Assembly (NCBI GenBank): GCA_947630065.1 | Contig: CANRGE010000001.1 | Span: 18,840-82,839 of the forward strand | DNA from: an uncultured Clostridia bacterium | GTDB taxonomy: Bacteria > Bacillota > Clostridia > TANB77 > CAG-508 | Length of the DNA: 64,000 nucleotides | Reading direction: 5' to 3' | Shown: positions 1 to 64,000 of the stretch, in pieces | Layout: every line of letters starts with the position of its first letter | How positions within the stretch are numbered: the stretch's first letter is position 1 | Position numbers and translations under genes: made by a program | Notes under the pieces: generated by a model | What the model saw: the letters and a program-made list of their open reading frames with translations, nothing else | What the model was told of the DNA's origin: nothing | The model's database searches: none

Positions 1-110
1 CATATAATCCAGTATGTATTTTTTCCATTTTTGTCATCATTCATATCTCCTTATAGCAAGAAACAAATAATCAATTTTTTATCGCCGTATTCGATGCTTT
101 TGCTTCCATT

Positions 111-647
111 TTAAATAAGCCTTTCGCCATCTGCTGTTAAATAATAATCTCCATTATCATCAATTTCTAAGCAAATTTGTGGAGTAATTATAATTTCCTC
201 ACCATTGCCTTTAATGTGTATACTTTTTATACTATAATTTTCGCCATAGTTGCGAATAACATTATAGTCTGTGCCGAACCTATTGTTAACATTGCTGTAA
301 CGGACGTAATATTTAGACTTACTACTTTTCCAATTTGGAATATAATCTGAACAATACATATCATAAAAACGTTCTGTTTTTAATAAAAACTTAATTTTTT
401 CAAGAACTTCATTTGCACGTTCTTCTGTATGAAAATAATCATTATTTTCAAAACATGAAATGTCATAATCAGTATGTTCTTCACAAGTTTTAGATATATC
501 AAGCTCACCACCTAAAATACGTAGATAATAGTAATATTCTCCAATGGCTTTACGTCTAAAATCAGATTCTTCACTCTGTTTAATTTCTTTTTTTAATTCT
601 TCTAAAGTCTGCTCAATTTGTTTTATTTTCTCTTCTATTTTATTCAT
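111..647 (-). CDS. hypothetical protein, tandem paralog 1 (N-terminal coiled coil)
   Basis: Intact 178-aa ORF with a GGAGA RBS. Shares the block NNxYFHTEERAxExLxKIxFxLKxE...CxDYxPxW with the genes at 794-1288 and 1281-1778. Confidence 0.6.
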   Translation of the reverse strand: MNKIEEKIKQIEQTLEELKKEIKQSEESDFRRKAIGEYYYYLRILGGELDISKTCEEHTDYDISCFENNDYFHTEERANEVLEKIKFLLKTERFYDMYCSDYIPNWKSSKSKYYVRYSNVNNRFGTDYNVIRNYGENYSIKSIHIKGNGEEIIITPQICLEIDDNGDYYLTADGERLI

Positions 648-688
648 AGTATTTCTCCTTTTAGTATTTTATTTTTCTTTACAATATA

Positions 689-717
689 ATTATATCATAA
701 TTTTTTGAAAATTTCAA
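689..717 (-). promoter_or_regulatory. sigma70-type promoter, conserved family copy 1
   Basis: Minus strand: -35 TTGAAA, 17-nt spacer, TGaTATAAT extended -10. About 35 nt upstream of the ATG at 647. Confidence 0.6.
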
Positions 718-793
718 ATATTTTATTCTTACAAATGTATAGTAACTGGTTAAAAAATTCCTACTTTTATTTTTAAAAATTCACAGGCATAAT

Positions 794-1288
794 TTATTCT
801 GCTTGCTATCTTCTAAAATCTTCATTTAATTTATCACAAATAATTTGTGCTGTTTCTCTATTTGGGAAATATACTCTTAAAATACCTCTATTCTTACAAT
901 CCCAATCTATTTTAAATCTTTTCCTTTCACTGTCATAATAGATATAGTATTTCGCCGCCTCTGAATCCCAATTAGGATAATAATTTGGACAATAAGTATC
1001 ATAATATTTTTCTAATTTTAGTAAAAGATTTACTTTATTTGCAACCTCGGCGGCACGTTTAGAATTAGTAAAATAATTATTGTTATCAAAATATGTAGTA
1101 ACATCATTAGTATTTAACCTATAATTATATATCTTGCCAGTATGAGGCTAAGATTTTATTATAAAGAATTGATTTTCAATATTAGGTTGAACTACAAAAT
1201 CTTTATCAAATTCCTTAAAATTTGATTCTGAAATACTTATTTTTTGTTTAGTCTATATAATTCTTTCTTCTAACTCTCTTTTATTCAT
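794..1288 (-). CDS. hypothetical protein, tandem paralog 2 (164 aa, 3 in-frame TAG)
   Basis: Missing from the ORF track because of TAGs. Read-through gives MNKRELEERII(TAG)TKQK...NNNYFTNSKRAAEVANKVNLLLKLEKYYDTYCPNYYPNWDS...NEDFRR(TAG)QAE then TAA at 794. The ATG overlaps the stop of the upstream paralog. Confidence 0.55.
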
Positions 1289-1778
1289 TTGCTATCTCAT
1301 TATTTAATTTATCACAAACTTGTTGAGCAATTGCATAAGATGGAAAATATGTTTTTACATGATGACAAAAAATAGTACTACTATTTACTTTAAATTTTTT
1401 TATTTCAGTGTCATAAGAAATACCATACTTATCTTCATCGTAAGAACTCCAATCTGGTTCATAATCAGGACAAAAGGTATCTTTATAACATTCAAGTTTT
1501 AACATAAAATTGATTTTCTTCAAAATTTCCATAGCTCTTTCTTCTGTATGAAAATAATTATTACTGTTAAAAAAATGTTCATCATAACTATAATTTTCTT
1601 TCCTTCTATCAATATAAAGTCCCGTGTCATCTGCACAAAAACAATAATAAAAATTATCAAGTGGCACATGATTAAAACTTGGTTCTTTAATAGTAGATAA
1701 TTCTTTTTCTAATATTTGTATTTTTTCTTTTAATTCATTTAATTCTTTTGTTATATTATCTATTTTTTGTATACTCAT
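1281..1778 (-). CDS. hypothetical protein, tandem paralog 3
   Basis: ORF 1281-1799. Preferred start is the ATG at 1778 (MSIQKID), preceded by GGAGGA. Same C-terminal motif family. Confidence 0.6.
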   Translation of the reverse strand: MSIQKIDNITKELNELKEKIQILEKELSTIKEPSFNHVPLDNFYYCFCADDTGLYIDRRKENYSYDEHFFNSNNYFHTEERAMEILKKINFMLKLECYKDTFCPDYEPDWSSYDEDKYGISYDTEIKKFKVNSSTIFCHHVKTYFPSYAIAQQVCDKLNNEIANE

Positions 1779-4542: not shown

Positions 4543-6225
4543 TTAACTAATTGACTACTCTGTAGTAGTCAAACCTAACATTACTTTATTTTCAAGATAA
4601 TAATTACTATTACTTACGGTATCACTATAACTTGAAATTCCCTCAAATTCTTCAACTAATTGTTTATTATCATTGTCGAGGTCTTTATATTGTTTTGTAC
4701 CATAATCGTCAGGGAGGAAGCCCTTTTTACGTCCTGCAAAAATGTTCCATTTCTTTAGCAAATCTTCATTAGTAAACCATATGTGAATAGTACCTTTTTT
4801 CATAAATTTTGCATCAAAAAATGCTCCATGAACTTTTTCACCGTCATAACCATTTCTACTTATATTCCTTAATATTGTACCAATAGTTTCTCCTTCTCTA
4901 TAACCACCATTAAGATAAGTTAAGACTTTTTCAATTTCATCAAGCATATCAGTTGCTTTATACAAGCTCCAACCAAATACATTTTCATAGATTCCATAAC
5001 AAGGAATTATGATTTTCTTATTTATCTTATATGCTTTATTAGTACACCACGAATTATAATAATGTATATTTCCAGATTTCATCTGACTATGTTCGTAAGT
5101 AAGTTTATCAAACTGCTCCATAATAGCTACTTCCAAATTACTATTTATAGATTCTACCAAATATATTTGCATAGTCTTTATGTTGTCTAAATTAAAATCA
5201 TAATTTCTTAATTTTTCCATGTTTCTTTGAAAATATGCACGCGTATTTTCTGTTAAATATTTAGAAACATCATCACTCTTAAAGAAAATATTCCAATATT
5301 TAGCACGTAATTCTCTAAGATAAAGATTTTGAATAGAATAGTTACTTGAATTTTCTTTTGTTAGAACTGTCATGTTTATAAGTGGCGATTCACTATGTGA
5401 CGAGCGCGGCAAAATATTTACAAATCTATTATAATTATCAAGCAAACTCAATCCTATTGTACATTCTTTATTATATTGGTCTAATATAATTTTTATAACA
5501 TCATTAACGGCAAGCTGATAATTGTTAGTCATACTTTCATATTGACTTTTATACTCTTGTGCTCTATGCATTTTAGAAAAAACATCAAAATCATATTGAA
5601 TCATAGGAATATCAACATAGATTAAAGCAATTTCAACTTTAGTGGTTCTTTCACTATCAACAAAAGTATCTGATAAAAACCCTATATCAGCTCTATATTC
5701 ATTTAATTTCTTTACAAGCTCTTTCCTTAATATACTATAAGGATTCTTTATAGTTTCAGCATTTAATATACAAACTATTTGTCCACCTGTGCGACAAAGG
5801 TTTAATGCTTTCATTAAATGCTTATCACCCTCTGAAAAAGGAGGATTCATAGCTATCAAATCATAACGAGTATAAGTATTCCACTCTAAAAAATCAGCAA
5901 CATTAACACTATAGTTATTATCTCTTAATATTGCCGCAAGGTTAGGGTCTATTTCAACACAATCTATAAATTTTATTTTTGATTTAACTTTTTGCAAAAT
6001 TTCTTTTTTTTCTGACTCTGTTATAGTTCTATCTAAATCTAATTTTTCAATCTTTTTTTGTTTCTTATCAAGCTCATTCTGATACAGATATTTATAAATT
6101 CCATCAATTATATCACCCTTGCCCGCAGATGGTTCGAGCATTGAATTAACTTTAGTCCAATCAACTTTTGCCGCCATTTTCATACTAAGACTTTCAGGTG
6201 TCGGATAAAATTGTATTCCAAACAT
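4543..6225 (-). CDS. N6-adenine DNA methyltransferase-like protein with long C-terminal domain
   Basis: Motif I LEPSAGKGDII and motif IV LIAMNPPF. The track ORF ends at TAG 4555. Read-through adds 4 codons (Q-S-I-S) to TAA 4543. Confidence 0.75.
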
Positions 6226-6322: not shown

Positions 6323-6820
6323 TTAATAAAAATAACAGTCACTACAATCTTTAACTTTTCCATCTTTTGAAAAAGTCCAACATTTTTGATTTAAACTTCC
6401 TCTTAATTGTGGTGTTTGTACATGAAGATTTTTATTGTATTTTCCATCAATTAAGAAATCTATACATTGTCTTTCCTTTTCGTTTAATTCTAATTGTGCT
6501 AATGTGAATCCTGTGTATACTACAATTTTTATATGGGGTAAATCATTACGAATCTTTTTAAGTAAGTTAAAAGAACTATTACGATTTTTTTCTGATAATG
6601 GTTCACCACCAAGTAATACAAAATAACCAATATGTGGCTTTTTTAAGCTATCACATATCACTTTATAAGTGTTATCTGTAAACTCTTTGCCGCAATTATA
6701 ATCCCATAATTCAGGATTAAAACAACCATCACATTTATTATCACAGCCACAAACCCATAAGGTTGTAGAATATCCATGACAATTTCCAGTATCATATGTA
6801 ATAATTTTGGAATATCTCAT
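6323..6820 (-). CDS. nrdG: anaerobic ribonucleotide reductase activating protein (radical SAM)
   Basis: CGCDNKCDGC (CxxxCxxC) and GGEPL motifs. Lies directly downstream of nrdD. Preferred ATG at 6820 after GGTGAG. Confidence 0.85.
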   Translation of the reverse strand: MRYSKIITYDTGNCHGYSTTLWVCGCDNKCDGCFNPELWDYNCGKEFTDNTYKVICDSLKKPHIGYFVLLGGEPLSEKNRNSSFNLLKKIRNDLPHIKIVVYTGFTLAQLELNEKERQCIDFLIDGKYNKNLHVQTPQLRGSLNQKCWTFSKDGKVKDCSDCYFY

Positions 6821-10400: not shown

Positions 10401-12973
10401 ATATTTAGGTATATTTGCAAGAATTTTTGTTATTGTTGGACTACATAAATTATATTTATCTGCTACTTGTTTTATTGTCATAGGTTGAGATAAATAATAT
10501 TTTATAATTTCTTGCTTTAATTCTTCTGTTATAATTTTACTTGGCATTATTCATCTCCTTTAAAATATTTTTGTTAAAACTTAGACTTTCACCGATTTTG
10601 CTCGATTTTTTCTAAAAAATTTCTTTTTTAGACAACCATACATTTTAGCTGATTTCCAGAGCGGCTTTGTAGAGAATTTAGGTTGTGATACATTCCTTCA
10701 ACTGCTTGGTCTAATTCCTTTTGTGTCATATCAAGTGCATATTGATAACTTCCTTTGTCATCATAAATATAAGTATCTGATATACTGTATTTGTCAGAGT
10801 CTTCTTTTGAAATACTAATTTCCTTTTTATCTTTCGCTATATATTTTAGCCCATCACAATAGTGCTTATAGAATGATTTTCTTACATAAGGAATCATTGT
10901 CCAATCTAAATGAGTAGCTGAAACTCCACCAAACTGATTTAACGATTGTAATTGAAAAATTACTGCTATTAGTTGAAAAGCCGTTTCGATACTATTAGCT
11001 GGACGTATATCTGTTTGACGTGTGTTAAATCCCTTAGCCAGCAAATCATCGAACGGGACAGATAAACAATTGTGTGATACATAATTATTTACAATAAACC
11101 AGTGTGATAATGTTTCTAAATCATATACATCTTCTTTTAAAGGCTCTGTTGTAATTGATATAATTTTTGTTTCATTAAAATTATTACTAATACCCATATA
11201 AGCATAAGAATCATTATATTTGAATGTATTTAATTCAGATTGTAAATTATAAACATCATCAGTTCGACCCACTGTTAAATTGAAACAATCATAATTTCTT
11301 GTTCCTGTTTTTCCTCTAATTTGATAGGTACTACCTTTTTTATTTATCAATGTTATGTGAGAAACATAGCCTAATTCCTTTAACATCATTGCTAATTGTT
11401 GCAAATAAGATTCACAGCAAGAAGTATAAGTTATTCCTCTACTTGTTACACTACCATCAGTATCTATACAAGCTGATAAATAAGCTAATTTTATTTTCTT
11501 ATTACCATTTAATACAAAATTAGGAACTGATATATCTCCTGCACCATTCTTCTTTGCTCCTGCAAAATTCTTAAATAATTTTACAATTATTCTTGAATCA
11601 TCTGTTACACGTATACAAGGTGAAGTGTGCCATTCTTTTGCATAAGATTTATTAAGATGCTTACCAAAAACAGCCTCATAACATTTTACAAAATCATCTA
11701 TTAGTTCTTCATTTATATTAGTAAATGTTAGAGAAAAAGTACTACTCTTTTCATTAATATATACACCACCATCTGCATATATATAGGCATATATTTTTGC
11801 AAGCTCAGGAGAATAAGGTATATATAATGGATATTCATTTTTACTACCACAGCTTTTAATTTTCAAAGAAGAAATAACATCAAAAGACAACGGATATTCT
11901 TTTGTAATTTTCTTAAAATCATTTAATTTTAATGTCAATGATGATGGCGGCAATTCAAAATTATGTTCTTTTGCAAAATCTGAAAATACTATATTATATT
12001 TAAATCTCAAATAATGTCTTAACACAGATAAGTTAGTAATTCTCAAATCTATTTGTTCATCATTTAATTGAGTTAAATCCAAAAAGCTACTCGCTATCTC
12101 TTCCTCTGATAAAGTTAAATTTTCTATATCTAAAAGACAATCACCTTTTTTTAGGTCTTTTACTTCTTTTAGCACTTCTTTACCATTCTCTATTATAGGT
12201 AATCTATGCTCACCAGTTAATTTTATTGGTATTCCAGAACGAGTTTTGATTGTATACAATAGTTCTTTGTCTTTCGGCGACCTTTTTGTAATAGATATTA
12301 GTTTTGTCCAGCCATCACGTGATAAAATAGAATAATTATCATTTTCGATAATAGCTATTTGATTTGTTTTAAGTAAAAACCTGTTTGCCAAATCCTCAAT
12401 TTTTATTGTTTCTATTTCATTATTATGTTTAACTTTAATAAATGATTTTCCTATAGTACAATTGTGTGAACCTATAGCATAACTATCTAAGTCATGAATG
12501 TAAATCTCATTATTTATATGATTATTTTTAGACATTTCTGACATACAGTTATCTAACGCATATTGTTTAAGAACCGTATTATTAACAGCTCCAACTCGTC
12601 CTCCAAAAGACCTTTCATCAACATTAGCGTTCTGATTTTCTACAATTTTTGCACCAATTTTATCACTAATTTCTTTCATAAGTTTAGAATTAGATTCTCT
12701 AACTCTTGTTCTATCATTACGATAGATGATAAAAGCTTTAGCAATATCCTTTCTATTACTTTGCATTAGCTTTTTTTCAATTAAATTTTGAATTTCTTCA
12801 ACTTCAATATTTGTTTCTTTTTTATTTTTTATTTCTGCTGCAATTTTTTCAGCAAGCTCTAAAGTTTTCTTATCCAAAATGGTATCAACAGCTAATGTCG
12901 CTTTGTTAATTGATGAGATAATTTTCTTTTCATCAAAAGCAACCTATCTACCATCTCTTTTAATTACATACAT
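6825..12973 (-). CDS. nrdD: anaerobic ribonucleoside-triphosphate reductase, split into 6 exons by 5 group I introns and carrying an intein
   Basis: Exons: 12973-10647 (intein 12460-11069), 9534-9231, 8948-8625, 8370-8212, 7923-7533, 6919-6825. Joining restores VIKRDGR(TAG)VAFD, IHDLDSYAIGSHN|CLSVPFDDLL, SGNQL|PFTSINYGT, STMG|CRTANGW, TLAVG|QLGLAETL, GVYYTP|AENLCF and RRVTG|YLTGDYKTAFNEGKQAEVEERVKH. Segment lengths sum to a whole number of codons (about 735 aa). Confidence 0.85.
6920..7532 (-). mobile_element. group I intron 5 of nrdD (613 nt, HNH ORF)
   Basis: The 5' exon ends ...ACGGGGT and the intron ends ...AAAAATG (terminal G). Splicing gives GGG T|AT TTA, which is G-Y-L of the glycyl-radical motif. 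Confidence 0.7.
7924..8211 (-). mobile_element. group I intron 4 of nrdD (288 nt, no ORF)
   Basis: The exon ends ...TATACTCCT and the intron ends ...GGGTATAAATG. The junction restores YYTP|AENL. GC-rich structured interior containing CGACTAT. Confidence 0.7.
8371..8624 (-). mobile_element. group I intron 3 of nrdD (254 nt, no ORF)
   Basis: The exon ends ...GCGGTGGGT and the intron ends ...GGGTATAAATG. Its last 47 nt are identical to intron 4. Confidence 0.7.
8949..9230 (-). mobile_element. group I intron 2 of nrdD (282 nt, no ORF)
   Basis: The exon ends ...ACAATGGGT and the intron ends ...AAACACG. The junction restores MG|CR at the active-site Cys. Confidence 0.7.
9535..10646 (-). mobile_element. 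group I intron 1 of nrdD (1112 nt, LAGLIDADG ORF)
   Basis: The exon ends ...AATCAGCT and the intron ends ...CATAACCG. CT|A CCG TTC restores SGNQL-PFTS. Confidence 0.75.
9729..10547 (-). CDS. LAGLIDADG homing endonuclease (double motif), 2 in-frame TAG
   Basis: Track ORFs 10242-10547, 9996-10226 and 9729-9944 share one frame and are separated only by TAGs at 10242 and 9996. Motifs YFLGLLITDGNV and LIRGIFDGDGSI. True stop is TAA at 9729. Confidence 0.8.
11069..12460 (-). mobile_element. intein (464 aa) with LAGLIDADG endonuclease domain in NrdD
   Basis: Begins C-TIGKSF after ...GSHN and ends ...VYDLETLSHWFIVNNYVSHN, followed by +1 Cys (CLSVPFDD). Block B is LTGEHRL. Endonuclease motifs IYAYIYADGGVY and LSACIDTDGSV. 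Confidence 0.85.
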
Positions 12974-13489: not shown

Positions 13490-13906
13490 TTATCTCACCT
13501 TCTTCTAATTTATTAGAATCATATTGTGAATAGGTGTTTTTACAATAAAATTTTTGTTATAAAAGATTTTTTCAAGAGTTAAATCTTCCAGTTCCCAATA
13601 CGGGATTCTGATTAAAGGAATATTATTTAGAATACAAAATCTATTTTTTCTAATATCATATTCCTTCTATTTACAAAAAGTTGACGGATTTTTATGAAAA
13701 TAAGGAGTATATTCAAAATGTTGTATTCCATCTATTTCAATAAGAGCAAGTAATTTTCCTTTGTTAAAAACACCAAAATCAAAACGCAATAACTCTTTAG
13801 CACCTTTTAATTCCCTAAAACTAACTTCCTATTTATACTATATGCCACCTTGTCTAAGAAGATTAGCAACAACTTTTTCACCTTTTGATTTTTTTGTCAC
13901 TAACAT
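13490..13906 (-). CDS. PD-(D/E)xK-type nuclease-like protein (138 aa, 4 in-frame TAG)
   Basis: MLVTKKSKGEKVVANLLRQGGI(TAG)YK(TAG)EVSF...LRFDFGVF...LIEIDGIQHF...IPLIRIPYWE, a pattern typical of small DUF559/Vsr-like phage nucleases. Confidence 0.5.
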
Positions 13907-24957: not shown

Positions 24958-25102
24958 ACCTTACTTCATGAAGTATTTTTCATATTAGAAAATTTAATTA
25001 TAATAAAACAATAAACACAAGCGTTCCAACAATTTGTTTTATCAATTTAACTTTACTATTTACTTTTAAAGGTAAGCTGAAAGTTATTAAAGCTGACCCA
25101 AG

Positions 25103-49075: not shown

Positions 49076-49104
49076 ATTATATCATAAAAAAGAAAAAAAG
49101 TCAA
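49076..49104 (-). promoter_or_regulatory. sigma70-type promoter, family copy 18 (gyrB-gyrA)
   Basis: Minus strand: TTGACT, 17 nt, TGaTATAAT. Confidence 0.6.
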
Positions 49105-49123: not shown

Positions 49124-49711
49124 TTAATATATCCAATCAAAAAATGTCTACTGGGAGAATTTGCCATTTTCGTCCTTGTAAAAAATAGCCCAACAATAAG
49201 CACAATTGGAATTTATTATATCATTTATATTACCATTGCGATAATGCTTTAATCTGTTAGCATACATATAAATGTTTTGCGGCTTATATTTGCTATAAAT
49301 CTAATCATATCGTTTTTTAGATTCTAATTGTGCAAGTTTCTAAAAGCTGCAAACATAACCATTGCATTTTACATCTTGTAATGCTTTTATTAACATTTCT
49401 GAAAAACCAATATTATATTTAATATTATAACTTTTTATAGGGAATTGAGTTATTATTAAGTCATAAGTATCTTTACAATTTAATTCCATATAATCTTGTT
49501 TTATAATATCTTGTCTTTTTGGTGTTATGTCATAACTATCAATCGGTATTTTTGTAAGCTAAAATAATCTATCAGATATAAAGCCGCCGCCTGCACAAGG
49601 CTCTAAAGCTTTTTTACATTTTCTAATTTCTGGCAAAACGACTAAAAGATTATTAACTATTATGGGGTCAGTAGCATAATTATCACTTTCTATTTTTTCT
49701 TTAGTCATCAT
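49124..49711 (-). CDS. SAM-dependent methyltransferase-like protein (195 aa, 4 in-frame TAG)
   Basis: MMTKEKIESDNYATDP...ALEPCAGGGFISDRLF(TAG)L (motif I) ...YDLIITQFPI (degenerate NPPF-like motif IV). Ends ...FS(CAG)(TAG)TFFDWIY then TAA. Confidence 0.45.
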
Positions 49712-51627: not shown

Positions 51628-54600
51628 TTGGCAACTTACACACAAGCTGAATTAAATGCTTTTAAAAGCGCAATGACACAAATTGTGCCTATAATTAGTG
51701 GCGCAACTCCTATATCAATGGAAGAGGCAGTTAGTTTTTTATCTACTTATGAAGGTTTAGAAGATACAGTAAAAAACCCTATAAAATTATGGGAACTAAT
51801 GGTGAATTATCTTGCTAATGAAAATTAGTCAGGATTCTTAGGATTACCTCTTATTAGTCAACAAAATTTTGCAGGAAGTAATAACAACACTATTTTTGCT
51901 TATCTTAATAACAACATAGATTTACCTGATAGCAGATTCAAAACTCTTTTAAATAATTATAAAGGTTAGATAGATTTAAGTACACCCAGCGGCACAACTT
52001 ATAATGCACCATTTTGGAATGAATCTGTTAGCTATTTAATGGCAAATTTACTTGCAGATTTTGATTTATCAACTATCAAATCTTTAGAAAATTAGGGATT
52101 TAATGAAAATATCTCACCCGTTCAAAGACCTAATGCACGAATAAAAAATAATGGACAAGCTGCATTTAGAATTACAGATGTAATATCAGCAGATGCAGGA
52201 AGAGATTTTAGCCAATACTATGTAAGACCATCTTATAATATTCAAGGACAAAAATATACTGATGTAAGAAATAGTGATTTAATTTCAACAGATGCAAAAA
52301 ATTCTGGACAATTATAGTATACAAATTCTACAAATGATTATTTAAGATTGTTAATGCCTATGTATACTCGTCAAGTTAAAGTTGAAGATTTAGATAGAAA
52401 TTTTTGGGTAATTGGACAATCTATTGCGGCAATTTGTGCTTATTTATTTGAAGATGATTCACCTTTAGTAAATATACTAAATAAAATGTTAAATGAAATT
52501 TTTCAACTTTGGGAAAATGTTTTGTTTTTATGGGTATTAACTGCATTAAATACTTATAAAGAAGAAGAAAAATATACTGATGTACATTGTGAGGTTGTTC
52601 CTTATCCTCAAAATGCTAATATGCATAATTATAAATATGATAATGCTTATTATAATGATGTGGATTTTGATGGGAATAGTTTTAAAGGAACTCTTTATGA
52701 TTTTGGTGAGGGTATAAAGGGTGAACTGATTACTACTGATTCTACTAATGCTACTTATTCAAAAATTTTGAAGAATAATATAAAATTATTTAGTTACTTA
52801 AAAGACAGCTATCCTAAAAGTAATTTATGTATAATACCTTTTATTAGATGTCATAATTATGAACATAATTATTATAGTGTTGAATATTATCCCGGTGTAA
52901 TTTACTATGATAGAAATAGTGACAAGTGGGGTATGTAGAGTTTTAAAATAAATCAAGAGAGTGACACTACAAAAAAACCAGATTATAGAAGTTATGATGC
53001 TAATTTAGATAAATCAATAACTGTACAAGATTTAATACGTATGCAAAAATATATCAATGGTGATGAGGTAGATTTTACAGGACAATTATATTCAGAGTTA
53101 ATAAAAAATAATACTATAGAGCAATATTATAAGATAGACCCAACAAACAATTTAAACGATTTTATAGTCGGAGATGCCAACAATGATAAAGAAATCAATA
53201 TAAAAGATACTATACGTATACAAAAACTTATAAATGAACATAACGATATAGAATTAAACGAAGATGGTTCAATAAAGTCAGAAAGCGGTGGGAATAGTAA
53301 CCCTGGAATAACTGTTATAAATAATGACTATGGAATACTAATTGTTGCATCATTTTATAAACAATATATAGGAGCTATAAGTGATGAAATTGATAATAAA
53401 AGATATTATGTATATCCTTTTTCTGACTTGGAAGAAAAAACTGAATACGAACCTAAAACATATAGAACTATTTTAAGAACAATTTTTGATAATAATAGTG
53501 TAAGTGCTTCTTTATCAGGAAAAGAAATAAATGGAATGAATGTAAGATTAAATAGATTTTCTATGTTAATAGAAGATGTTGCGAGAAATTTAGAAATAGA
53601 AAGTGACCCCGATTCAGAAGAAAACCCCATGCCAATAATTCTATATGAGTTAAATAAAAATGAAACAGATGGAACGTTAGATATAGAAACTGTTTCAATT
53701 ATAAAACAACCAGAAGCTAATCAGCATATTTTAGGTAAAGAAATAAAAATAACAAAAGGTTATTATTTAGGAGAATTAGTTTCTGAAACAAAAAGAAGTA
53801 ATCAAAAAAATTATACTTTTAAAACAAAAGAAATAAATTTAATGCCTATTAAAAATAATTAGGCTTGGAATAATATAAGTAAAATAAATAATTATGACGA
53901 AAATTAGTTTAAACAAATAGCTGATATAGATAAAGATAAGGAGTCAATACAAATAAATATTGTTACTCATGATAGTGATTTATACCATCAAAGTGAAAAA
54001 ACAAATTTACATAAATACTATGTTGATGGTGTTGAAATAGTACCAAATGGCACTACAATTCCAGATAAAATATTAGATGTTAGTTTATCAGATAATAATA
54101 TTATAAGTTCAAATAGTTCTAATAATTTCTTAAATAGTTATAGAGAACAAGTCTATTCTTATGCTTAGATTACTGCTCCTTTTTTAGAAAAAGGAATAGA
54201 TTATTCAAATTATATTGGGTATAATTATCTACCCAAAGCAGGAAATATTACAGATGGTATTGTTTCATCAATACTTGTACCACAAAAAAATAATGATAAT
54301 GGAATATTATCATTACCTTCTGATGAAGATAATGCATCGATTAAAAGAGCAAGATAGTCTTGGGATTACACATTATTTGAAATTTATGCTACAGAAAAAC
54401 CTATAACGAAAGATAATTGGATTATATCGGTAGTAAAAACCAATTGTATTTTTGGTGCTTTGCCAAGTTTTAAACCTTATGACTCCATAAATAATATAAA
54501 AGTTTTGACTAATATATCAGACGATGTATTAACATATGATAAAAATAATGAAGATGTAATCAATATAATAAAAAACATGATAAAAAATAATGTAGTTAAG

Positions 54601-55086
54601 GCTCATATTTCTACAACTTTACAATTAAATAATAGTTCAATAAAAAAATATATAATACCATTCTTTTTAATAGGCTATCCAATGCCAGATAAAGATAATG
54701 AAGATTATAATACATCAGATTACACTAAATTATATAAAGATTTTAATACATTATATGATATTGTAAGTAAGACTGATAATAACAATACAATTAAAACTGC
54801 AATAATGAATAGTGAAATACAACTAATTCCAGCCTTTTTGAATCAACAATGGCACTATTATTTTAATGCTAATGGTGAAGTTCATTATGAACATAAATAT
54901 ATATATAATTATAATTCAAACGAGTCAAATACAAAAACGAAATATGATAATGAACAAGAATATAATAGATTAAAATAGCAAGTTAAAACTTAGGTAAAAC
55001 CATATGGTAGAGAAGCTTCAATAATGGATAATGGAAAAATACCTTTTAATTTTGACATTTATCCACATAATGGATATAATTATTAA
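51628..55086 (+). CDS. giant protein L1 (1152 aa, 11 in-frame TAG), putative virion protein with dockerin/EF-hand-like loops
   Basis: TTG start after AGGAGGGAG. Track ORFs 51628-51828, 52348-52938, 53041-53862 and 54460-54978 are all in frame 1. I checked every gap codon by codon and found only TAG interruptions. TAA at 55084. Confidence 0.7.
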
Positions 55087-55097
55087 GAGATGGTTAA

Positions 55098-57833
55098 ATG
55101 ACTATACAAACTTTTTTTGAGCAACTAAAACAAACAAGTAGTATATTTCCAAATTTAATAAAAAATCTTGCAGATGAATATAAAAAAAGAAACAAATTTC
55201 CTAATATTGACTTCGATAAAGAATTTTTATCATATTTTTAGCAACATATTCCTTTTGAAAAAGCCGCAAATAATTCACCATTAGGAAATATTCAAAGAAA
55301 TATAGATTTAGATGATGAACAAATTGATAATATAATTGAACAAATTTAGAACAATAATCTCACTAATAAACCATGGAATGAATCAGTTGTTAATCTTGCT
55401 ATTGAAATATTAAAATTATCAAAAGATAATTTAATAAAATCCTCTGGTGGAACAGAAGAAATTTTCAAAAAAGCTGACGCTGGTAATTCTTTTACAGACT
55501 TAAACAATGTAGTAAAACCAATGACTAATTTAAGTAATGATAATTTTAAGTCAATTATCGGTAATTCAGCGGAAGTACTTAAAGCATTATTAAATGATAA
55601 GCATATTCAAAAAACAAATAATATAACAGATGAGTACCCTTTTATATCACTCTTAATGCCAAAAAATACAAGACGAGTTGAAATAGCAGATTTAAATAGG
55701 AATTTTTGGGTTATAGGTGCAATTACAACTCTTATTAACAATATGCTATTCAAGCAAGATAATAATTATCAACAAGTTTTTTCTAATATGATAAATGAAA
55801 TTACTTAGTTATGGGAAAATCTACTCTATTTATGGGCAACTACTATTCTTACTGAATTATTAGAAGAAACTCCTCTCCATGTTGAATTTTTATATTTACC
55901 AAATAATGAATTTTAGAATTATAGAAAATTTGATAATTTTGCTTTTAATGAAAAAATAAATAATAACTGGAATTTAGGCAATAAAGACGAAGAAGAAAAA
56001 ATGTTAAAAAGTCGTTTGAATTTTTTAAAATAGAAATATCCTGAATATAATATTTGTATAATTCCAATTATAAGATGTAATAATTATGAATCTAATTATT
56101 ATAAGGAAGAAATTTATGAATGTTTTTATTTTATACCTGCAAAATCGAATAATTATCATATAACTTATATGGCACAATTTACCAATAAAATCAATTTTCC
56201 ATGGCGAAATTCAATTAGTATTGATAATAACTGTATAGCATATAAAAAAGATGATGCAGGAAATTATTATTATATATCTCCTTTTAATAAAGTTTCTAAT
56301 GTTTATGAGTACAATCCTACTAAATACTATGCTGCCGCCAGAATTACGCCAACATTAGAGTACAGTTATAAAAATAATATAATATCCATAAAAGGTGGAA
56401 AAGATAAAGGACTTTCTATAAAAGTAACTGATGCTATAGCTAAGGCAGCGAATTTATCAGAAAGTTTTTCAATGGATATTTTTTTACAAAATAATTTACA
56501 ATATAATTTTACAACTGGAATTATTGAAACGCCTGAATCAATTACAATTGGTGAAGATGGTAGAGAAAGAATAAAAGTATCAGTTTATACTAATTCTCAT
56601 ACAATTCAAATGGACACCCCTAAAAAATTTTCCTTTCTTAATGGTTTTTATTTAGGTGAATGTGTTTCTGATTATAAAAATTCACAAAGTATTTCTTATG
56701 ATTTAGTTCTTAAAGAGATTGAATTAGAACCTTTTATAAATTCAGCTGTAGAAAATACTAATTTTAATGGAGTTTCTTATCCCTCAATTTATACAATCCA
56801 AAATAATGAAGAAAAAATCAACCCCATTTTTTCTGAAAGAGCCAGTCTCGAAAATAGTGGAACAATTATAGAAAGATACACTAAAGATAATTAGACAGAA
56901 TTTTAGGGTACATCTTATATGACATTAAATGTTGGGAGACATTCCATAGGTTGGTGGGGTGAGGGTTCAACAAAAACAGAATTTTGGAATATAAAAAATG
57001 ATAAATTGCTTCTTGATTCAAAAACTATACCTTTTACTCATCATTCTGGAAACTTATATAAAGGTGCAGCGTTAGTTGACCCATTAAATGATAAAATAAC
57101 TTCATATTCTGAGTACTATTGGTATACAACAGGAATACCTGGTATTGCACCATATGTATTTAAAGATTCAGGTTTTACATACTGGATGCATAATAAGAAT
57201 TTTACCTTTATTTATACTAAAAATGGTGAAGATTTAAGTAGTGACAATTGGATAATTAGATATGTTCAATTTTCTGGTGCGCTTACATTTGATACATAGT
57301 CTGCTTTTCAAAATACGGATAATCAAACAATTAAAGATTTTTGTATAAATTTAAATAAATGGAAATTTCCTTTATCAGCTACTAATGATAATACTTTTAT
57401 TTGTTATCAAGATAGCCTAAAGGAATATAATAGCTATTCCTATGAAATAGAAAATGGTGCATTATATACAGGCGGACATAGTTATTTCTATCCAGTAATA
57501 TCAAAAGTACAAACCAATATTTTCTATCCAAATGGAAATTATGATATAAATATAGACGTATTAACTTATAATAATCAACCTATTTATCTTTATAATAAAG
57601 AAATTGACTATACAAATCAAAACTATACTGATTCAAATTGTCCATTTAAGTGGAAATCAATTAAAACAAGTGACAATTATTCCAATATAATATCTCAATT
57701 AACAGATGAAAAACTAAATTCTCCAGTATCAACTAACAAATATTATTGGCTTGGAGATTTCTCAAACACATTGGATTTCACAAAATATCAAATAGATGGA
57801 AAACGTAAAGGACAAAAAACGACAAAAATTTGA
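55098..57833 (+). CDS. giant protein L2 (911 aa, 8 in-frame TAG), paralog of L1
   Basis: ATG at 55098. ORFs 55521-55808, 56169-56894 and 56919-57299 are in frame, and the gaps contain only TAG. Shares LLMPxxTRxVxxxDLxRNFWVIG...NEIx(Q/TAG)LWEN...CIIPxIRCxNYExNYY with L1. TGA at 57831. Confidence 0.7.
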
Positions 57834-58190: not shown

Positions 58191-59258
58191 TTATTGAACT
58201 GTAACAGTTCCCTCTGTTCCAGTAAAAGACGGTTGTGTGATAGTTCCTTTAGGAGTGTAAGTGATACTAACAGTTGCATCATCACCAGTAAATACAGGCT
58301 TACTAATATCACCTTCGGGAGTATAATCAACACTAATAGTTGAAGGAGTTCCTGTAAAAGTTGGAGTTGCAATAGTCCCTGTAGGAGTATAGGAAGCTGT
58401 TAATGTTGAAGCACTTCCTGCAAATGTAGCAGTTAAATCAGTAGGAGTTCCAGTAAAAGAGGGTGTGGTAGTAGTTGCTGATTTAATTCCAGTTACAACA
58501 GTTACTGCACTTCCCTAAGTCGGCAATGCACCAGTAGTCCATTTAAGCTCCAAAGTTTCATCAGCCACAGTTGTTTCAAGACTGGGTAATGTACCGACTG
58601 ATGTAATCGGCGTTATAGTGTCAGTATTGGGAGTAACTGTAGTTGTTAATGCACCAATAGTACCAGCGGGAGTGTAATTACCTGAACTACTTACAGGAGA
58701 TGTTGCTTTTATGGTTACATTTCCAGACGGAGTGTAACTATTTGTAGTTATTGTATCTGCGCCGCCAGTGAATGTTAAACTACCTATAGTGCCTTGTGGC
58801 GTAAAGGCAGTTGAAAGTGTTTTCTTAGTGCCAGTAAATGTCAAATCGCCAACAGTACCTGTAATAGAAACATTGGAATCAGTCAAAGTTTCCTGCGTAC
58901 CACTAAAAGTAATAGCTGAAATACTACCTTGTGGTGTGAATTTGCCTGTTGCACTATCCTTAAAGGCTAAAGCCTTTAATGACCCCATGTCACCAAATTC
59001 TTTCCATTGAGTGCCATTCCAAGCAAACTCTTTATCATTATATATTACTACATCACCAGAATTTGGCGTTACGCTATCAGTGTCTATTTGAATAGGAGAA
59101 GTAGTAGATTTATCCGTTATTTGAGTAGTTGTTTCTCCTATGTAGTGCATTGCACCAGTTAATCCAGTTTTTAAGTCACTTATTTCTTGTCTTGCCTATG
59201 TGTCTTTAATGTTATATGTATTACCGCTTGGTAATTTTATTTTAGAAATATCAGGCAT
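58191..59258 (-). CDS. tail fibre protein 1 with periodic YTPxGxI...FTG repeats (355 aa, 2 in-frame TAG)
   Basis: N-terminus MPDISKIKLPSGNTYNIKDT(TAG)ARQEISDL. At least 8 repeats of about 25-30 aa of the form (F/Y)TPxG(T/S)I..(L/P)(T/S)F(T/S)G. ORF 58515-59150 continues past TAG 58515 to TAA 58191. Confidence 0.65.
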
Positions 59259-59273
59259 TATTTTTCACCTCAA

Positions 59274-60698
59274 TTAGTAAATAGAAAAAAGTATTTCAAT
59301 TATGTTGTCTGTTATACGTTTTACAACTCTATAGCCTTTTTCAGAAGATGTCGCTATGCCGTTTTCGCCACAAGTACAATATTCATTTACTTTGCAAGTT
59401 CCATCATCTCTTACTCTTATATAGCCAAGCATACCAATTGCAGCCCATTCAGGACGTTCAGCACGAGAAATATATTTTTGGTTTTCATCGTAATCAGGAT
59501 TTATTGTTAAAGGTTTACCATCTTCTTCATTACCATAGATAAATCTACCAAAATCATCTCTTATATATGTTTTAGACCAACATTCATCTGCATTACCTAC
59601 AATACTTGGAGTACCAGAAACAATTCCTGCAATAAAATCACCAGGCTATGCAATGTTGATTTTATCACCATTTAAGGTTACAAATAATCCTACTCTATCT
59701 TCATTAAATAAGTTGCCATCTTCCCATTCTTTATATTCTGCATAATCTGCGCCAGAGGTATGAAAAGACTAAAGTCCATAAGCAGTTCCATCATAGTTTA
59801 CTCTAAAAGCATTAGCCTAACTACTTGCTGTGCCATTACCTATTACAAAAGCTGTTCCAGAAGTTCCATTAACAGAACCATAATTTGATGTTCTGTTATA
59901 ATGTCCAAAGGCAATCCCCCCAGTAAAACCACGAGCATTACTACCTATAGCAACGGCTTCAGAACCCTATTTAGTTATTGTACAATTGTTACCTAAACAT
60001 AAACCATACATAGAATCTACAGTATTGTTAAAACCAATACCTACACAAGTATTTGCATTTTCCTAAAATGTATTAGTAAATCCTATTGCAACACAAGTAT
60101 CAGATGTATCAAATTGATTATTATTTCCAATTGCAGAAATAGTTCCAGACCCACTTATAGTATTTAAATCACCCATTATATAACAATTTGATGACCAATC
60201 TTGTATATAATTTTGGTTGCCAGCAATAAAACATTTTTCTGATGAATCAATATTACTATTATATCCACATATTATTGTAGAATAATCACTATCTACCCCT
60301 ATCGTATTAGTTTCACCAGCTACAAAATTTAAACTACTGCTACAAGTATTATCAAAACCAATTGCAAAGTTATTTTCTCCACCATATATTATGTTAGAAG
60401 AACCAAATAAAGTATGATAATTTCCAGCTACATTTTGTTGATTATCCCCTGCTATAAAACAACAAGTGCTTTGACTGGTTCCAAGTGATAAATTATTGAT
60501 TTTAAAATTCCCTAAACTTTCTGGGTCATTATAACTAACTACTTCTAAATTATCTCTTGCTTCTTCTGCTGTAGTCGCACCTGTGCCACCTTGCGTAATT
60601 GGTACAGGCACGGATATTAAATTACTACTTCTCGCAACACTATCCTTTATATTATAAACCTAACCATCAGGTAATTTAATTTTAGATATATCTGCCAT
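59274..60698 (-). CDS. tail fibre/appendage protein 2 with beta-helix repeats and peptidase-G2-like C-terminal domain (474 aa, 6 in-frame TAG)
   Basis: N-terminus MADISKIKLPDG(TAG)VYNIKD. Repeats of N.aiG..n. C-terminal NAFRVNYDGTAYGL(TAG)SFHTSGADYAEYKEWEDGN...RPEWAAIGMLGYIRV resembles the autoproteolytic intramolecular-chaperone domain of phage tail spikes. Confidence 0.65.
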
Positions 60699-60709
60699 TA
60701 TTCATCACA

Positions 60710-61138
60710 TCACTTATTAGTAAATATTAACAATTCACTGTCAACAGACGATTCATCAATAGTTACTTTTTCATTCCATTTATTTTTATCCTAAATTGTA
60801 ACATGAATATCTTGATTCTCTATATGTTGAGAATAAAGTGTGTCTATAAAAGGTAAATCAGCTAAATATGAATTGCCATCACCTATTTTTATTCCTGCTA
60901 CATCTTTACTTAAATCCTGTTTATAGTTACTATAAATATAAATAGTACCTTTTTTAGGAATTAAAATAGACTAACTTGCCCAATTTTCTTTTGTATCACA
61001 AAAAATTTCTGCATTTGCAGCATTAACATCAACAGTTAATTTATTGATTTTTTTCATAATTACACTGTTTTCATCATTTAATTTATTCCAAAGGAGCTAT
61101 AATCCCTCCTCATCTAAATATTTTTTATTTTTAATCAT
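60710..61138 (-). CDS. tail-associated protein (142 aa, 3 in-frame TAG)
   Basis: MIKNKKYLDEEGL(TAG)LLWNKL... This N-terminal YLDxxGLxxLW motif recurs in the gene at 61131-62594. Confidence 0.5.
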
Positions 61139-62594
61139 TGTTACTCATTCCTTTTTTCAGATAATAAATAGTTAAGTTGCTTATGGTAGTGTCTTTTAAT
61201 TCGCTGCCGTCAATCTTTAACGGTTTAATAACAACACTATCACCGTCATACCAATGTTCAAATTTTAGACAAGAGCTTTCATATTTATCACTCTATATAT
61301 CAACTATAATAGAGTCTTTCAAAGTAAAACTATAAGTACCTTGATTATCAATTGCGGCACTTGTAAAACTACTTATCTATATTCCTTTAGTTTTCTAAAA
61401 GAAATCTTCAAAATTATTATTAGTTAAAACCACATCAGTTTCTACATCTTTCCATGTGCCATCGCCTTGTGCGGAAGTCCAATCTTCTTTTTTAATCACG
61501 GAATTTCCTTGCTTTAGAACCGTAATATTAAAAGTTCCACTATTAGCTTTCCTATAAGCTACTAAGCAAAATTCTGTATCTGTAGTATAATAACCAAATT
61601 TTGTTCCATTTGCAGATGGTGTTACTAATTCAACAACTTTCATTTGTCCAACACCATTATGTAATCCTGCTTGAACTAACCAAACGCCGCCAATCATGTA
61701 CTAATATCTTGCTATATCGGTAATAATTAAACTAACAGAATTTTCAGGTTTACTTTCTTCTAACTTTAGAGGTATTTTACAGAAAGTAGTATATCTATCG
61801 GCATTATGAGAACCAAATTCATAGTTAAAGCTATTATCTAATCTTATATTTTGAGAACCATCAAAATTAGTATTGTTAATAGTGACTATTCTATCAAGCT
61901 AATGCGCCGTGGCGCAACTATTTTTAATACTTTCAATAGTAGAATCAGTAATATCATCTGAAACTATATTGCTATCTGTTTCTTTACTTAACATATCATA
62001 TAAGTTCCAACTACTTTCTTTATCATTATAATTATTGTGTTCTTCTAAAACCTAAAACATATAATTGTCTGTCTTAGAACATTTAACAGCTAAAAGAATT
62101 TCACTCTCGCCACAAATAAGTTTGAAATCTTGTGGGTCTATGTCACCACTTAATAAATTCCACTTTAGATTTTTATTAGAAATATTCCCATCGTTAATTT
62201 CTATAAAAGCAGTTAAAATTCCTATACTATCACTATTGTTACTTTTTCTAACAATAAAACTAATACTTGTGTCACCATTATTAAGATAAGTGTCGGCGAA
62301 AATTCTCCAACCTTTTTCTTCATTATTACTATTGCCCTCTATTAAACACTTTCTATAAGGCATTGCACCAACATCTTCATAAGTTGGCATTTGATGAATG
62401 TGGTCGGCTCTACTAAACTTGTTACTGATACCAGGCTCAGGTTCGTCCTCAAAATTCTTAGGTAAATCATCAGATGGTTCAGTTACAAAAACTTTAATAG
62501 CATCAATCTTATTTATAATTTTACTATTCTATTCATCTAATTTATCCCATATTTGTTTTAAGCCTTTTTCATTCAAGTAATACTTTTTTGCCAT
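61131..62594 (-). CDS. tail fibre protein 3 (487 aa, 7 in-frame TAG)
   Basis: MAKKYYLNEKGLKQIWDKLDE(TAG)N...GISNKFSRADHIHQMP. ORFs 62052-62390 and 61395-61697 are in frame. TAA at 61131 overlaps the next ATG. Confidence 0.6.
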
Positions 62595-62595
62595 T

Positions 62596-62880
62596 TTAAC
62601 CACTCATTGTAAAAGTTAAAGAATTTATAAAATCTGCACTTATTGGCTCAAAATCGTTAATAGAGGTTTCAATATCTTGAATTTTTGTAGTATTATCACC
62701 TATTGACTAATCCTAAGTTTTATTAGTTTGGTCTAATTGCTAATATTTTTGTTTCAAATCGGCAATGTCTTTATCAGAAGCTGCACCGCCAGACGTGTCA
62801 GCAGCGATACTTCTATCTTTGAAATAGGCGGGGTCAATAGTATCATCTCTTACTTTCTATTCCTATAGATATATATTCAC
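62596..62880 (-). CDS. coiled-coil protein with DDTIDPAYF motif (94 aa, 5 in-frame TAG); paralog of 34140-34550
   Basis: GTG start after GAGGTGA. NIYL(TAG)E(TAG)KVRDDTIDPAYFKDRSIAADTSGG... Confidence 0.5.
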
Positions 62881-62994
62881 GCATTATCACCTCATTTTAC
62901 TTATTTAATTTTGTTTTAACTATTAGAAAAAACAAAATTTTAATTCTATTATAAAGTAACAACCTTTATTTTTATCTCTAAACAATATAAAATA

Positions 62995-63023
62995 TTGATT
63001 TTTACTATTTTTTATGATATAAT
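62995..63023 (+). promoter_or_regulatory. sigma70-type promoter (plus strand) for the polymerase gene
   Basis: TTGATT, 17 nt, TGaTATAAT. Confidence 0.6.
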
Positions 63024-63055
63024 ATATATAAGAAAAAATAATAGAGGTGATTTGT

Positions 63056-64000
63056 TTGAATGAATTTTATGGTTCTTGTCACAATCATACTGACCGTAGT
63101 AATCATGATTTAAGAGATTCAACTAATAGATTAGATGAATTATGTTGGTATGCCGCAGATACTTTGAAACATAATTTTATTGCAATAACAGACCACGAAA
63201 CAATTATGACGGCGATAGATTGTCAAGAAGTAGAAGAAAAAATTAGACAAACTTATCCTGATTTTAAGGTTATTAGAGGAAATGAAATTTATCTTTGCAG
63301 AAATGGACTTAATGCAGAAAACTATGTAAGAGGAAAAGACAAATTTTATCATTTTGTACTCTTAGCAAAAAACATAGAAGGACATAGACAAATAAGAGAA
63401 TTATCAACAAGAGCATGGCTTAGAAGTTTTAAGCAAGGCAAAATGAGAAGAATACCAACTTATTATTCTGATTTACAAGAAGTTATTGGTAATAATTCTG
63501 GTAATGTAATTTTTAGTACAGCGTGTCTTGGTTCAAGATTAGCTAATCTTGCTATTAATTATAACTCTAATCCAACAGATGATAAATTACAATATATTAT
63601 TACATGGATTACAGAAATGCAGCAAATTTGCGGCAAAGAGAATTTCTTTCTTGAAGTTCAACCATCTTTTACAGAAGAGCAAAAAATAATTTATAAAGTC
63701 TATAAAGAGCTTTCAGAAAAATTAAACATTCCTGTAGTAATTTCACTTGATGCTCATTATTTAAGAAAAGAAGATAAAGAAATTCATCATGCTTTCTTAA
63801 CAGCACAAGAGGGTGAAAGAGAAACAGAAGCTTTCTATTCTTCAACTTATATGATGAATAGAGAAGAAATTCATTCTTATATGGACGAAGTTATAGGAAC
63901 AGAAACGGTTTCATTATGGCTTAATAACACAAAAAACATTTATGATATGTGTAATGATTATGATTTAACAAAACCTACAAAGATTGGTTATATTCCTTTA
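63056..64000 (+). CDS. dnaE: DNA polymerase III alpha subunit-like (DnaE-type), N-terminal PHP domain; runs off the window
   Basis: TTG start after AGAGGTGA. LNEFYGSCHNHTDRSNHDLRDS...FIAITDHETI...IRGNEIYL...HFVLLAKN...FFLEVQP...ISLDAHY are typical PHP-domain motifs. Open to the window end with no TAG in 315 codons. Confidence 0.75.
   Translation, partial: MNEFYGSCHNHTDRSNHDLRDSTNRLDELCWYAADTLKHNFIAITDHETIMTAIDCQEVEEKIRQTYPDFKVIRGNEIYLCRNGLNAENYVRGKDKFYHFVLLAKNIEGHRQIRELSTRAWLRSFKQGKMRRIPTYYSDLQEVIGNNSGNVIFSTACLGSRLANLAINYNSNPTDDKLQYIITWITEMQQICGKENFFLEVQPSFTEEQKIIYKVYKELSEKLNIPVVISLDAHYLRKEDKEIHHAFLTAQEGERETEAFYSSTYMMNREEIHSYMDEVIGTETVSLWLNNTKNIYDMCNDYDLTKPTKIGYIPL

Follow-up and report, generated by a model that had tools for sequence, protein, structure and literature searches.

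Why do genes without a single in-frame TAG codon lie directly beside TAG-dense genes, apparently within the same operons? The question is raised by a stretch of 64,000 nucleotides (hereafter the window), positions 18,840 to 82,839 of contig CANRGE010000001.1 in assembly GCA_947630065.1, which is assigned to an uncultured Clostridia bacterium. The source of the window is a phage of ~150 kb with a GC content of 28%, the value also obtained for the 64-kb window itself; the exact gyrA protein was found on metagenome contigs, the largest of which is 153 kb. An earlier note on this DNA had described TAG use as strongly mosaic, and had proposed that the TAG-free genes are either recent imports from standard-code genomes or genes that must be translated before a suppressor tRNA accumulates. 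The reading favoured here, with moderate confidence, is that selection acts against TAG in particular gene families, the proteins of which are likely made under the standard code of the host; the timing, including 'early' expression, and the operon structure are what we infer from the sequence.

Reassignment of TAG and the suppressor tRNA

Open reading frames (ORFs) of ≥100 amino acids (aa) total 20,385 aa when only TAA and TGA terminate translation, compared with 14,306 aa under code 11, and in-frame TAG is present within the domains of DnaB, RecJ, PhoH, UvrD and NrdD. On the evidence of tblastn alignments with relatives, TAG is read as glutamine (code 15). Glutamine is the residue most frequently aligned with the TAG sites of the window (24%, compared with 30% at CAA/CAG sites), and TAG falls on conserved glutamines at DnaB 72 (49 of 61 relatives), primase 256 (45 of 51), RecJ 57 (35 of 39) and PhoH 319 (35 of 45). 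At many other TAG sites the relatives have K, E, N or R.

The tRNA needed for this reading is encoded by the phage. ARAGORN detected ten tRNAs between 24.7 and 33.6 kb, among them a suppressor with the anticodon CUA (25102..25176, minus strand; Rfam 62 bits). The suppressor is closest to the phage's own tRNA-Gln(UUG) (30049..30122, minus strand; ARAGORN), with which it has the D-arm, the anticodon stem and the U1-A72 pair in common; judged by these features, it is a paralogue derived from tRNA-Gln. It sits in a TAG-poor stretch behind a sigma-A-type promoter (25900-25872), and the tRNA region from 25.9 to 31.8 kb is nearly without TAG. A 212-nt spacer (24890-25101, minus strand), which holds a tRNA-like T-arm element at ~24893-24960, separates the suppressor from tRNA-Met. 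A further tRNA-like gene (32249-32314, minus strand; Rfam 50 bits) was missed by ARAGORN; its anticodon loop is shrunk to ~2 nt and holds no readable anticodon. Theta- and hepatitis delta virus (HDV)-like elements occur beside such tRNAs in gut phages; an Rfam search for a theta/HDV-like ribozyme beside the suppressor gave no match.

A fine-grained mosaic of TAG use

With TAG read as sense, 66 ORFs were kept, comprising 17,837 codons, of which 126 are TAG, 404 CAA and 52 CAG. The heterogeneity of TAG among these genes (G = 190) was reached in none of 20,000 multinomial simulations (72 ± 10, maximum 118; P < 5e-5), and the same held per glutamine-like codon (TAG + CAA + CAG; G = 133 compared with 68 ± 10 simulated; P < 5e-5). 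Since G lies far above the simulations on both measures, the density of TAG does not simply track gene length or glutamine content, and the claim of strong mosaicism is borne out. Half of the genes (33 of 66) have no TAG, where 17.9 (per codon) or 20.7 (per glutamine codon) would be expected; gyrA and gyrB together have none among 39 glutamine-like codons. At the other extreme, the gene at 38953-40323 is the sole large gene significantly enriched in TAG (P = 0.002 per glutamine codon). Runs of TAG-free and TAG-bearing genes number 25, against 34 expected for 66 genes (P = 0.02). The mosaic is one of modules of 1-10 genes, and neither a random interleaving nor a two-block split.

Gene identities were taken from Pfam and PHROGs, which also identify UvrD and endonucleases of the GIY-YIG, HNH and LAGLIDADG types. 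From position 1 to 51,191 the genes lie nearly all on the minus strand, as do all the features given here and below unless the plus strand is named. The TAG-free genes include gyrB (47201..49045; DNA_gyraseB, Toprim, GyrB_C; 0 TAG in 614 codons), gyrA (44798..47197; DNA_topoisoIV, GyrA_C; 0/799), an ATP-dependent DNA ligase (14760..15878; DNA_ligase_A_M; 0/372), an RNA ligase (28561..29871; RNA_ligase; 0/436), two N6/N4 DNA methyltransferases (27190..28119; N6_N4_Mtase; 0/309; and 30134..30817; 0/227), a DUF932 gene (30830..31789; 0/319), ThyX (16733..17449; Thy1; 0/238), the NrdG activase (6323..6820; 0/165), a YorF gene resembling single-stranded DNA-binding protein (YorF/SSB-like; 43001..43900; PF27337 YorF, phrog_2367; 0/299) and the PHP domain at the start of dnaE (63206..64000, plus strand; 0/264). 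Exon 1 of NrdD with its LAGLIDADG intein (10628..12973; ATP-cone, NRDD, Intein_splicing, LAGLIDADG_3; 781 codons) has a sole TAG at codon 10, within the ATP-cone domain, and the intein is TAG-free. All of the genes named in the earlier list of TAG-free genes, and the intein, are thus confirmed apart from the third methyltransferase, which carries DUF4942 (4543..6225) and a single TAG, placed 4 codons ahead of the TAA.

The replisome is recoded. The DnaB-like helicase (21189..22856) has 5 TAG in 555 codons, the DNA primase (20118..21131; phrog_47) 4 in 337, the RecJ-like exonuclease (18308..19750) 5 in 480 and the PIN-PhoH gene (40716..41918) 4 in 400. This amounts to one TAG per 84-111 codons, so that the densities quoted earlier for these four (1 per 30-90) were somewhat too high; the accompanying statement that the split is neither a simple early/late nor a replication/structural one is correct, DnaB, primase and RecJ being recoded. 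The AAA_24 ATPase (41964..42938) has 2 TAG in 324 codons, the one at codon 38 being common to two related loci (L086 and L087), which lie on contigs of 114-187 kb. Densest are the small ORFs, namely an 80-codon leader ORF (40385..40627; 7 TAG at codons 2, 7, 27, 32, 43, 79 and 80, then TAA) and a 91-codon ORF with a predicted transmembrane start (16458..16733; 6 TAG), whose start overlaps the ThyX stop. Among the lysis genes, the endolysin (36969..38387; CHAP + GH25) has 3 TAG in 472 codons and is not enriched, whereas the leader ORF and the gene of unknown function at 38953..40323 (8/456), in the same predicted operon, are. The two giant genes (51673..57833, plus strand; 1137 and 911 aa) hold 11 and 8 TAG. 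For the small ORFs, lysis and giant genes, the range of 1 per 10-120 given earlier is corrected by these counts: 7/80 and 6/91, 3/472, and 11/1137 and 8/911. Four tail-fibre-like genes (58191..62594; Peptidase_G2 domain) hold 2, 6, 3 and 7 TAG; tail-fibre and giant genes together range from 5.6 to 14.4 TAG per 1,000 codons (2/355 to 7/487), compared with 7.1 overall. Also TAG-bearing are a GIY-YIG homing-endonuclease-like gene (23720..24676; 7/318), an HNH/homing-endonuclease-like gene (13490..13906; phrog_559, phrog_9084; 4/138) and a methyltransferase-like gene just upstream of gyrB (49124..49711; phrog_799; 4/195).

As a separate observation, TAG is ~2-fold commoner in the last 5-12 codons of ORFs, a weak effect (P ~ 0.03) exemplified by the genes at 4543-6225, 13897-14391, 794-1300, 13490-13906 and 49124-49711. 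Such 3'-end TAGs could be relics of stop codons beyond which translation now continues to the following TAA or TGA.

The same families avoid TAG across recoded relatives

Whether the TAG-free state belongs to this genome or to the families was addressed with relatives. A megablast search of a phage collection with gyrAB and a single-sequence gyrA scan of IMG/VR gave no match, and an alignment-based scan was needed to find them. It yielded gyrA relatives with identities of 38-72% on >80 viral contigs of 90-220 kb, most of which conserve the order gyrB-gyrA-two small ORFs-YorF-AAA_24-PhoH-helix-turn-helix (HTH) gene-DnaB-primase-RecJ. The samples behind the clade come from gut and rumen, cattle included. 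The code of each locus was judged by in-frame stops inside tblastn alignments to the window proteins, because ORF coverage is too noisy to tell the code, freeing TGA also lengthening spurious ORFs. About 30 relative loci have no in-frame TAG in any orthologue and look standard-code; 19 are TAG-recoded and represent 15 lineages at <85% gyrA identity. The codes are interleaved within the clade, recoding being present in the two nearest relatives (gyrA identity 71-72%) and absent from one at 64%. A search of the gyrA-centred relative loci for tRNAs yielded none.

With one representative for each of the 15 recoded lineages, gyrAB have 2 TAG in 19,859 codons, compared with 143 in 39,219 in eleven neighbouring families (Fisher P = 5e-23), and the density in gyrAB is below that of the neighbouring families in 15 of 15 lineages. 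Counted over all recoded relatives, there is 1 TAG in 15,023 codons of gyrA (19 relatives) and 2 in 10,227 codons of gyrB (17 relatives), and none in DNA ligase (2,928 codons, 8 relatives), NrdG (1,129 codons) or the C-terminus of NrdD (1,118 codons). RNA ligase is TAG-free in 80 of 80 relatives (L091-L170), clearly recoded loci included. The ThyX orthologues in two loci that were checked (L087 and L090) are TAG-free, which probably places ThyX in the same class. Their neighbours do accumulate TAG, with 17 in 8,936 codons of DnaB, 15 in 5,311 of primase, 27 in 6,011 of RecJ, 20 in 6,937 of PhoH, 22 in 5,965 of AAA_24 and 22 in 3,954 of the HTH protein. Homing endonucleases are TAG-rich in the window and in relatives alike, and the HNH-like endonuclease is the TAG-densest family (28 in 1,901 codons). 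The two closest relatives repeat the pattern of the window gene for gene; their PhoH genes carry 8 and 6 TAG, and the L086 orthologue of the methyltransferase-like gene at 49124-49711 carries 7.

The supply of codons from which TAG could arise is not what differs. Under code 15 a change from CAG to TAG is a synonymous single transition, yet gyrAB in recoded relatives hold 294 CAG and only 3 TAG, an imbalance that suggests selection against the TAG codon itself in gyrase. The ratio TAG/(TAG + CAG) is ~0.01 in gyrAB compared with 0.16-0.37 in DnaB, primase, RecJ, PhoH and AAA_24 of the same relatives. By the same logic, the counts for the ligases and Nrd point to selection against TAG there also. 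Because the same families remain TAG-free while equally or more conserved neighbours gain TAG, selection on the codon can be separated from gene history and from protein constraint. Judged by this comparison, selection, and not history, is what keeps these families free of TAG.

Three observations on the relatives stand apart from this argument. One relative (L010/L090; IMGVR_UViG_3300045988_142677) has a near-identical CUA suppressor tRNA adjoining ThyX, and its gyrase-to-RecJ module is almost TAG-free, the one TAG lying in the HNH-like gene. The presence of a suppressor together with a nearly TAG-free replication module suggests that recoding enters genomes of the clade stepwise, by degrees, perhaps by way of late genes and homing endonucleases before the replisome. 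Further, insertions with homing-endonuclease-like ORFs split gyrB in close relatives, and a LAGLIDADG ORF interrupts PhoH in L088 (L086 7192-9998, L087 7023-9996 and L088 11541-13884, in locus coordinates). The replication genes of the clade appear to be visited by mobile introns or inteins.

Predicted promoters and operons, and a proposed timing of translation

On the favoured reading, TAG usage is set family by family: purifying selection keeps gyrA, gyrB, DNA ligase, NrdD/NrdG and RNA ligase TAG-free here and in diverged recoded relatives, while TAG accumulates in DnaB, primase, RecJ, PhoH, AAA_24, homing endonucleases and the lysis, tail and giant genes. The TAG-free proteins would most likely be made by standard-code translation in the host, before or independently of effective suppression. 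In the other genes TAG would delay or gate translation, even on an mRNA shared with TAG-free genes. Translation of the TAG-free families before the suppressor agrees with an avoidance of TAG that is conserved and family-specific; it is also the model already published: in the account of Borges et al. (bioRxiv 10.1101/2021.08.26.457843), standard-code-compatible genes come first, then the machinery for the code change and then the recoded genes.

The layout of predicted promoters bears on this model. The window has ~20 near-identical intergenic motifs of sigma-A type on the coding strand (ATATTTGAYT-N14-TRTGnTATAAT), with the extended -10 that is typical of sigma-A promoters in Firmicutes. Examples lie at 51238, 49104, 44361, 40672, 36247, 34135, 29938, 28291, 26204, 25900, 23662, 18303, 13081, 6289 and 717 on the minus strand and at 57830 and 62995 on the plus strand. 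The one before gyrB (49076..49104, minus strand; TTGACT-N17-TATAAT with TG) is 31 nt from the gene. Most TAG-free blocks begin right behind a predicted promoter, among them gyrB, the ORF at 50229-51191 and the small ORF before YorF, as well as RNA ligase, the tRNA-Lys-methyltransferase unit and dnaE. In the window, genes that come first after sigma-A-type promoters have 2.8 TAG per 1,000 codons compared with 8.7 elsewhere (permutation P = 0.005, post hoc). Genes that rely more on codons served by the phage's tRNAs also tend, weakly, to be denser in TAG (rho = 0.34, P = 0.02). Tight spacing together with predicted promoters and terminators suggests operons shared by TAG-free and TAG-dense genes.

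The clearest case of gating would be the predicted lysis operon, in which a terminator and a strong promoter are followed, 17 nt on, by the 80-codon leader ORF, then by the 8-TAG gene of unknown function, the endolysin and a membrane protein. The leader ORF (40385-40627), with TAG at codons 2 and 7 and ending in TAG-TAG-TAA, may be a TAG-gated leader of this operon.

It should, however, be noted that several results weigh against translation ahead of the suppressor as the explanation. Taken singly, most TAG-free genes are not significant (P 0.05-0.4); gyrA and gyrB alone are. The YorF/SSB-like gene is TAG-free in the window but has 19 TAG in 5,520 codons in recoded relatives. The promoter-proximity effect shrinks to 2.7 versus 4.8 TAG per 1,000 codons in 16 recoded relatives (Wilcoxon P = 0.13) and is confounded, gyrB being in many cases the gene directly behind a promoter; it is kept here as a hint. 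Strong promoters also lie directly before TAG-rich ORFs, at 40672 (the 7-TAG ORF) and at 18303 (a 3-TAG ORF). Further, TAG shows no bias towards the 5' ends of genes in the window (Kolmogorov–Smirnov P = 0.29; first 25 codons P = 0.09). The endolysin carries no excess of TAG. The suppressor itself apparently stands behind a host-type promoter, so that the interval before suppression may be short.

A bolder form of the favoured reading, which we regard as tentative, is that TAG content times translation in a graded way, family by family, and that this timer is conserved in many recoded lineages of the ~150-kb clade. A complete lack of TAG would then be the signature of a fixed pre-suppressor proteome, to which gyrase, DNA and RNA ligases, NrdDG, ThyX and anti-restriction methyltransferases would belong. 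The replisome would be recognised by its few TAG, and the homing endonucleases and a leader ORF gating the lysis operon by their dense TAG.

Alternative explanations

The alternative that survives best, though we consider it rather unlikely, dispenses with timing altogether. TAG could be avoided wherever incomplete suppression is costly, as release factor 1 (RF1) competes with the suppressor and truncates enzymes that are then toxic or dose-critical. A cost of leaky suppression fits the conserved, family-specific avoidance as well as the timing model does. Covalent or adenylated intermediates arise in the reactions of gyrase subunits and ligases, and truncated forms of these enzymes could plausibly do harm. 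However, great length is no bar to TAG (11 in 1,137 and 8 in 911 codons), and tail and giant genes, some of which are presumably structural and abundantly made, carry TAG too. DnaB is hexameric, and its truncated subunits would be expected to be poisonous, yet it has 5 TAG here and 17 across the relatives.

That the TAG-free genes are recent imports from the host or other phages with the standard code, and have not yet gained TAG, is improbable for the set as a whole. The idea fares well for one gene, a methyltransferase (27190-28119) whose codon usage is the most atypical of the window (z = -5.2; G+C at third codon positions, GC3, 0.256); its downstream neighbour at 26648-27163 is atypical too (z = -3.3). 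Methyltransferases in metagenome-assembled genomes (MAGs) of Clostridia, Synergistales and Syntrophomonadales match the 27190-28119 enzyme at 75-90% identity, so that its gene is probably widely mobile and of recent acquisition. A weaker candidate is the methyltransferase at 30134-30817, which is 65% identical to one of a Fusobacterium phage. The main genes look different. Codon usage is typical in gyrA (z = +1.5), gyrB (+0.4), DNA ligase (+0.2), NrdG (+0.6), the dnaE start (+1.1) and DUF932 (-0.3), and pooled GC3 does not differ significantly between TAG-free (0.178) and TAG-bearing genes (0.165). The best match to gyrA in the phage database is only 34% identical, none being close in cultured phages. 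The gyrAB genes keep their synteny in >80 related contigs at 38-72% identity, and this synteny together with the ranking of identities already indicates vertical inheritance, with a place inside the phage clade; orthologues are TAG-free in at least 15 recoded lineages whose neighbouring genes carry TAG. RNA ligase is clade-wide and TAG-free throughout, and DNA ligase and NrdG/NrdD are clade-wide as well. As the TAG-free state belongs to the family and not to one genome, the recent import suggested earlier is rejected for gyrAB, DNA ligase, NrdG/NrdD and RNA ligase, and stands for the 27190-28119 methyltransferase alone.

Co-conversion by homing endonucleases from standard-code relatives, which would erase TAG in genes with introns or inteins (gyrB and nrdD), was considered by reasoning alone and rejected as a general cause: PhoH has been invaded in a relative and is nevertheless TAG-bearing, and a stretch of 1,400 codons without TAG is long by the measure of co-conversion tracts.

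A still less likely alternative is that TAG density merely reflects the rate of protein evolution, conserved proteins gaining fewer TAG. Some features agree with it. TAG-rich genes include small, fast-evolving ORFs and homing endonucleases, and the frequent alignment of TAG sites with K, E, N and R is as expected of variable positions. The density of CAA + CAG is equal in the two gene sets (2.5% of codons in TAG-free and 2.6% in TAG-bearing genes), so that TAG comes on top of ordinary glutamine codons. On the other hand, mean identity to the window is lower for gyrA and gyrB (45-48%) than for DnaB and RecJ (57-61%), which carry TAG, and across families identity does not correlate with TAG density (Spearman rho = 0.16, P = 0.56). 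Together with the CAG and TAG counts in gyrase, this test largely refutes the explanation by evolutionary rate; protein conservation does not account for the avoidance. Finally, chance or mere gene length and glutamine content, for which the non-significance of most single genes might be cited, is refuted by the simulations, whether per codon or per glutamine codon, and by the repetition of the pattern in independent relatives, and hardly deserves further thought.

Other features of the window

The host is probably a Firmicute, given the CHAP + GH25 endolysin, the extended -10 promoters and matches to MAGs labelled Clostridia. No terminase was found in the 64-kb window. The segment 50000-52000, with 18.6% GC, a change in the sign of the GC skew and divergent transcription (from 51191 and 51673), is a candidate replication origin or major divergent promoter region.

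The nrdD gene lies in pieces over 7516-12973. Besides exon 1, fragments of NrdD are found at 9198-9485 and 7516-7926, and a free-standing LAGLIDADG ORF with 2 TAG (9729-10547) lies within the split region. Two matches to group I introns, both sub-threshold, fall at 8389-8634 (E = 1e-6) and 7942-8221 (E = 2e-3), and a sequence of ~45 nt is repeated, preceding both 7926 and 8373. The gene appears to be split by one intein plus introns, the intron matches being sub-threshold.

Comparison with known systems and outlook

The case is an instance of the known partial recoding of TAG to glutamine with a phage suppressor tRNA. Among code-15 gut and rumen phages (crAss-like, Lak, Jade, Sapphire and Agate, among others), genes with in-frame TAG make up 26-71% depending on the clade, an intron endonuclease is rich in the recoded codon, the recoding of replication genes is variable, and standard-code and recoded members are interleaved within other clades (Borges et al., bioRxiv 10.1101/2021.08.26.457843). 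The phage of the window resembles them in its low GC content, its CUA suppressor tRNA, the share of genes with TAG (50% here), homing endonucleases rich in the recoded codon, TAG in tail, giant and lysis genes alongside variably recoded replication genes, code-change genes in standard-code-compatible stretches, and codes interleaved within its clade. It differs in that the recoded genes form short blocks of 1-10 genes within apparent transcription units and not one late block; in that DnaB, primase and RecJ are recoded whereas gyrase, ligases and Nrd are not; and in that an upstream leader ORF and a gene of unknown function, but not the endolysin, are preferentially recoded.

In T4-like phages, expression is tuned in time through codon usage and tRNAs, later genes leaning on phage-encoded tRNAs (work cited in Borges et al., bioRxiv 10.1101/2021.08.26.457843). 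The weak correlation of TAG density with codons read by the phage's own tRNAs is reminiscent of such tuning; however, in T4 it concerns the efficiency of translation among sense codons, whereas here the codon is a stop, so that translation ends without the suppressor. The best matches to the RNA ligase (49-51% identity) come from Bacillus and Lysinibacillus siphoviruses of similar genome size (~160 kb; vB_BcoS-136, Kirov, Thrax1 and LC76P1). Dual-code gene finders such as Mgcod handle phage genomes with blocks under two codes, and assume that these are long and contiguous. The window likewise holds standard-compatible and TAG-recoded genes together, but its 66 genes alternate 25 times. Such genomes will be mis-annotated by gene callers built on the assumption of a single code or of long one-code blocks.

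What the case adds is modest, namely a fine mosaic within apparent operons and a recoded replisome beside unrecoded gyrase, ligases and Nrd, together with clear comparative evidence that selection maintains TAG-free families across many recoded lineages. Evidence for stop-codon recoding as a translational clock has so far come mostly from the genomic position of recoded codons. The clade offers many related genomes in which standard-code and recoded members stand side by side, and it names candidates for experiment: gyrase, ligases and Nrd against DnaB, primase and RecJ, and the TAG-laden leader ORF of the lysis operon. If the graded timer proves true, sequence by itself could reveal the immediate-early proteome of uncultured recoded phages, and translation alone could separate in time the genes of a shared mRNA.

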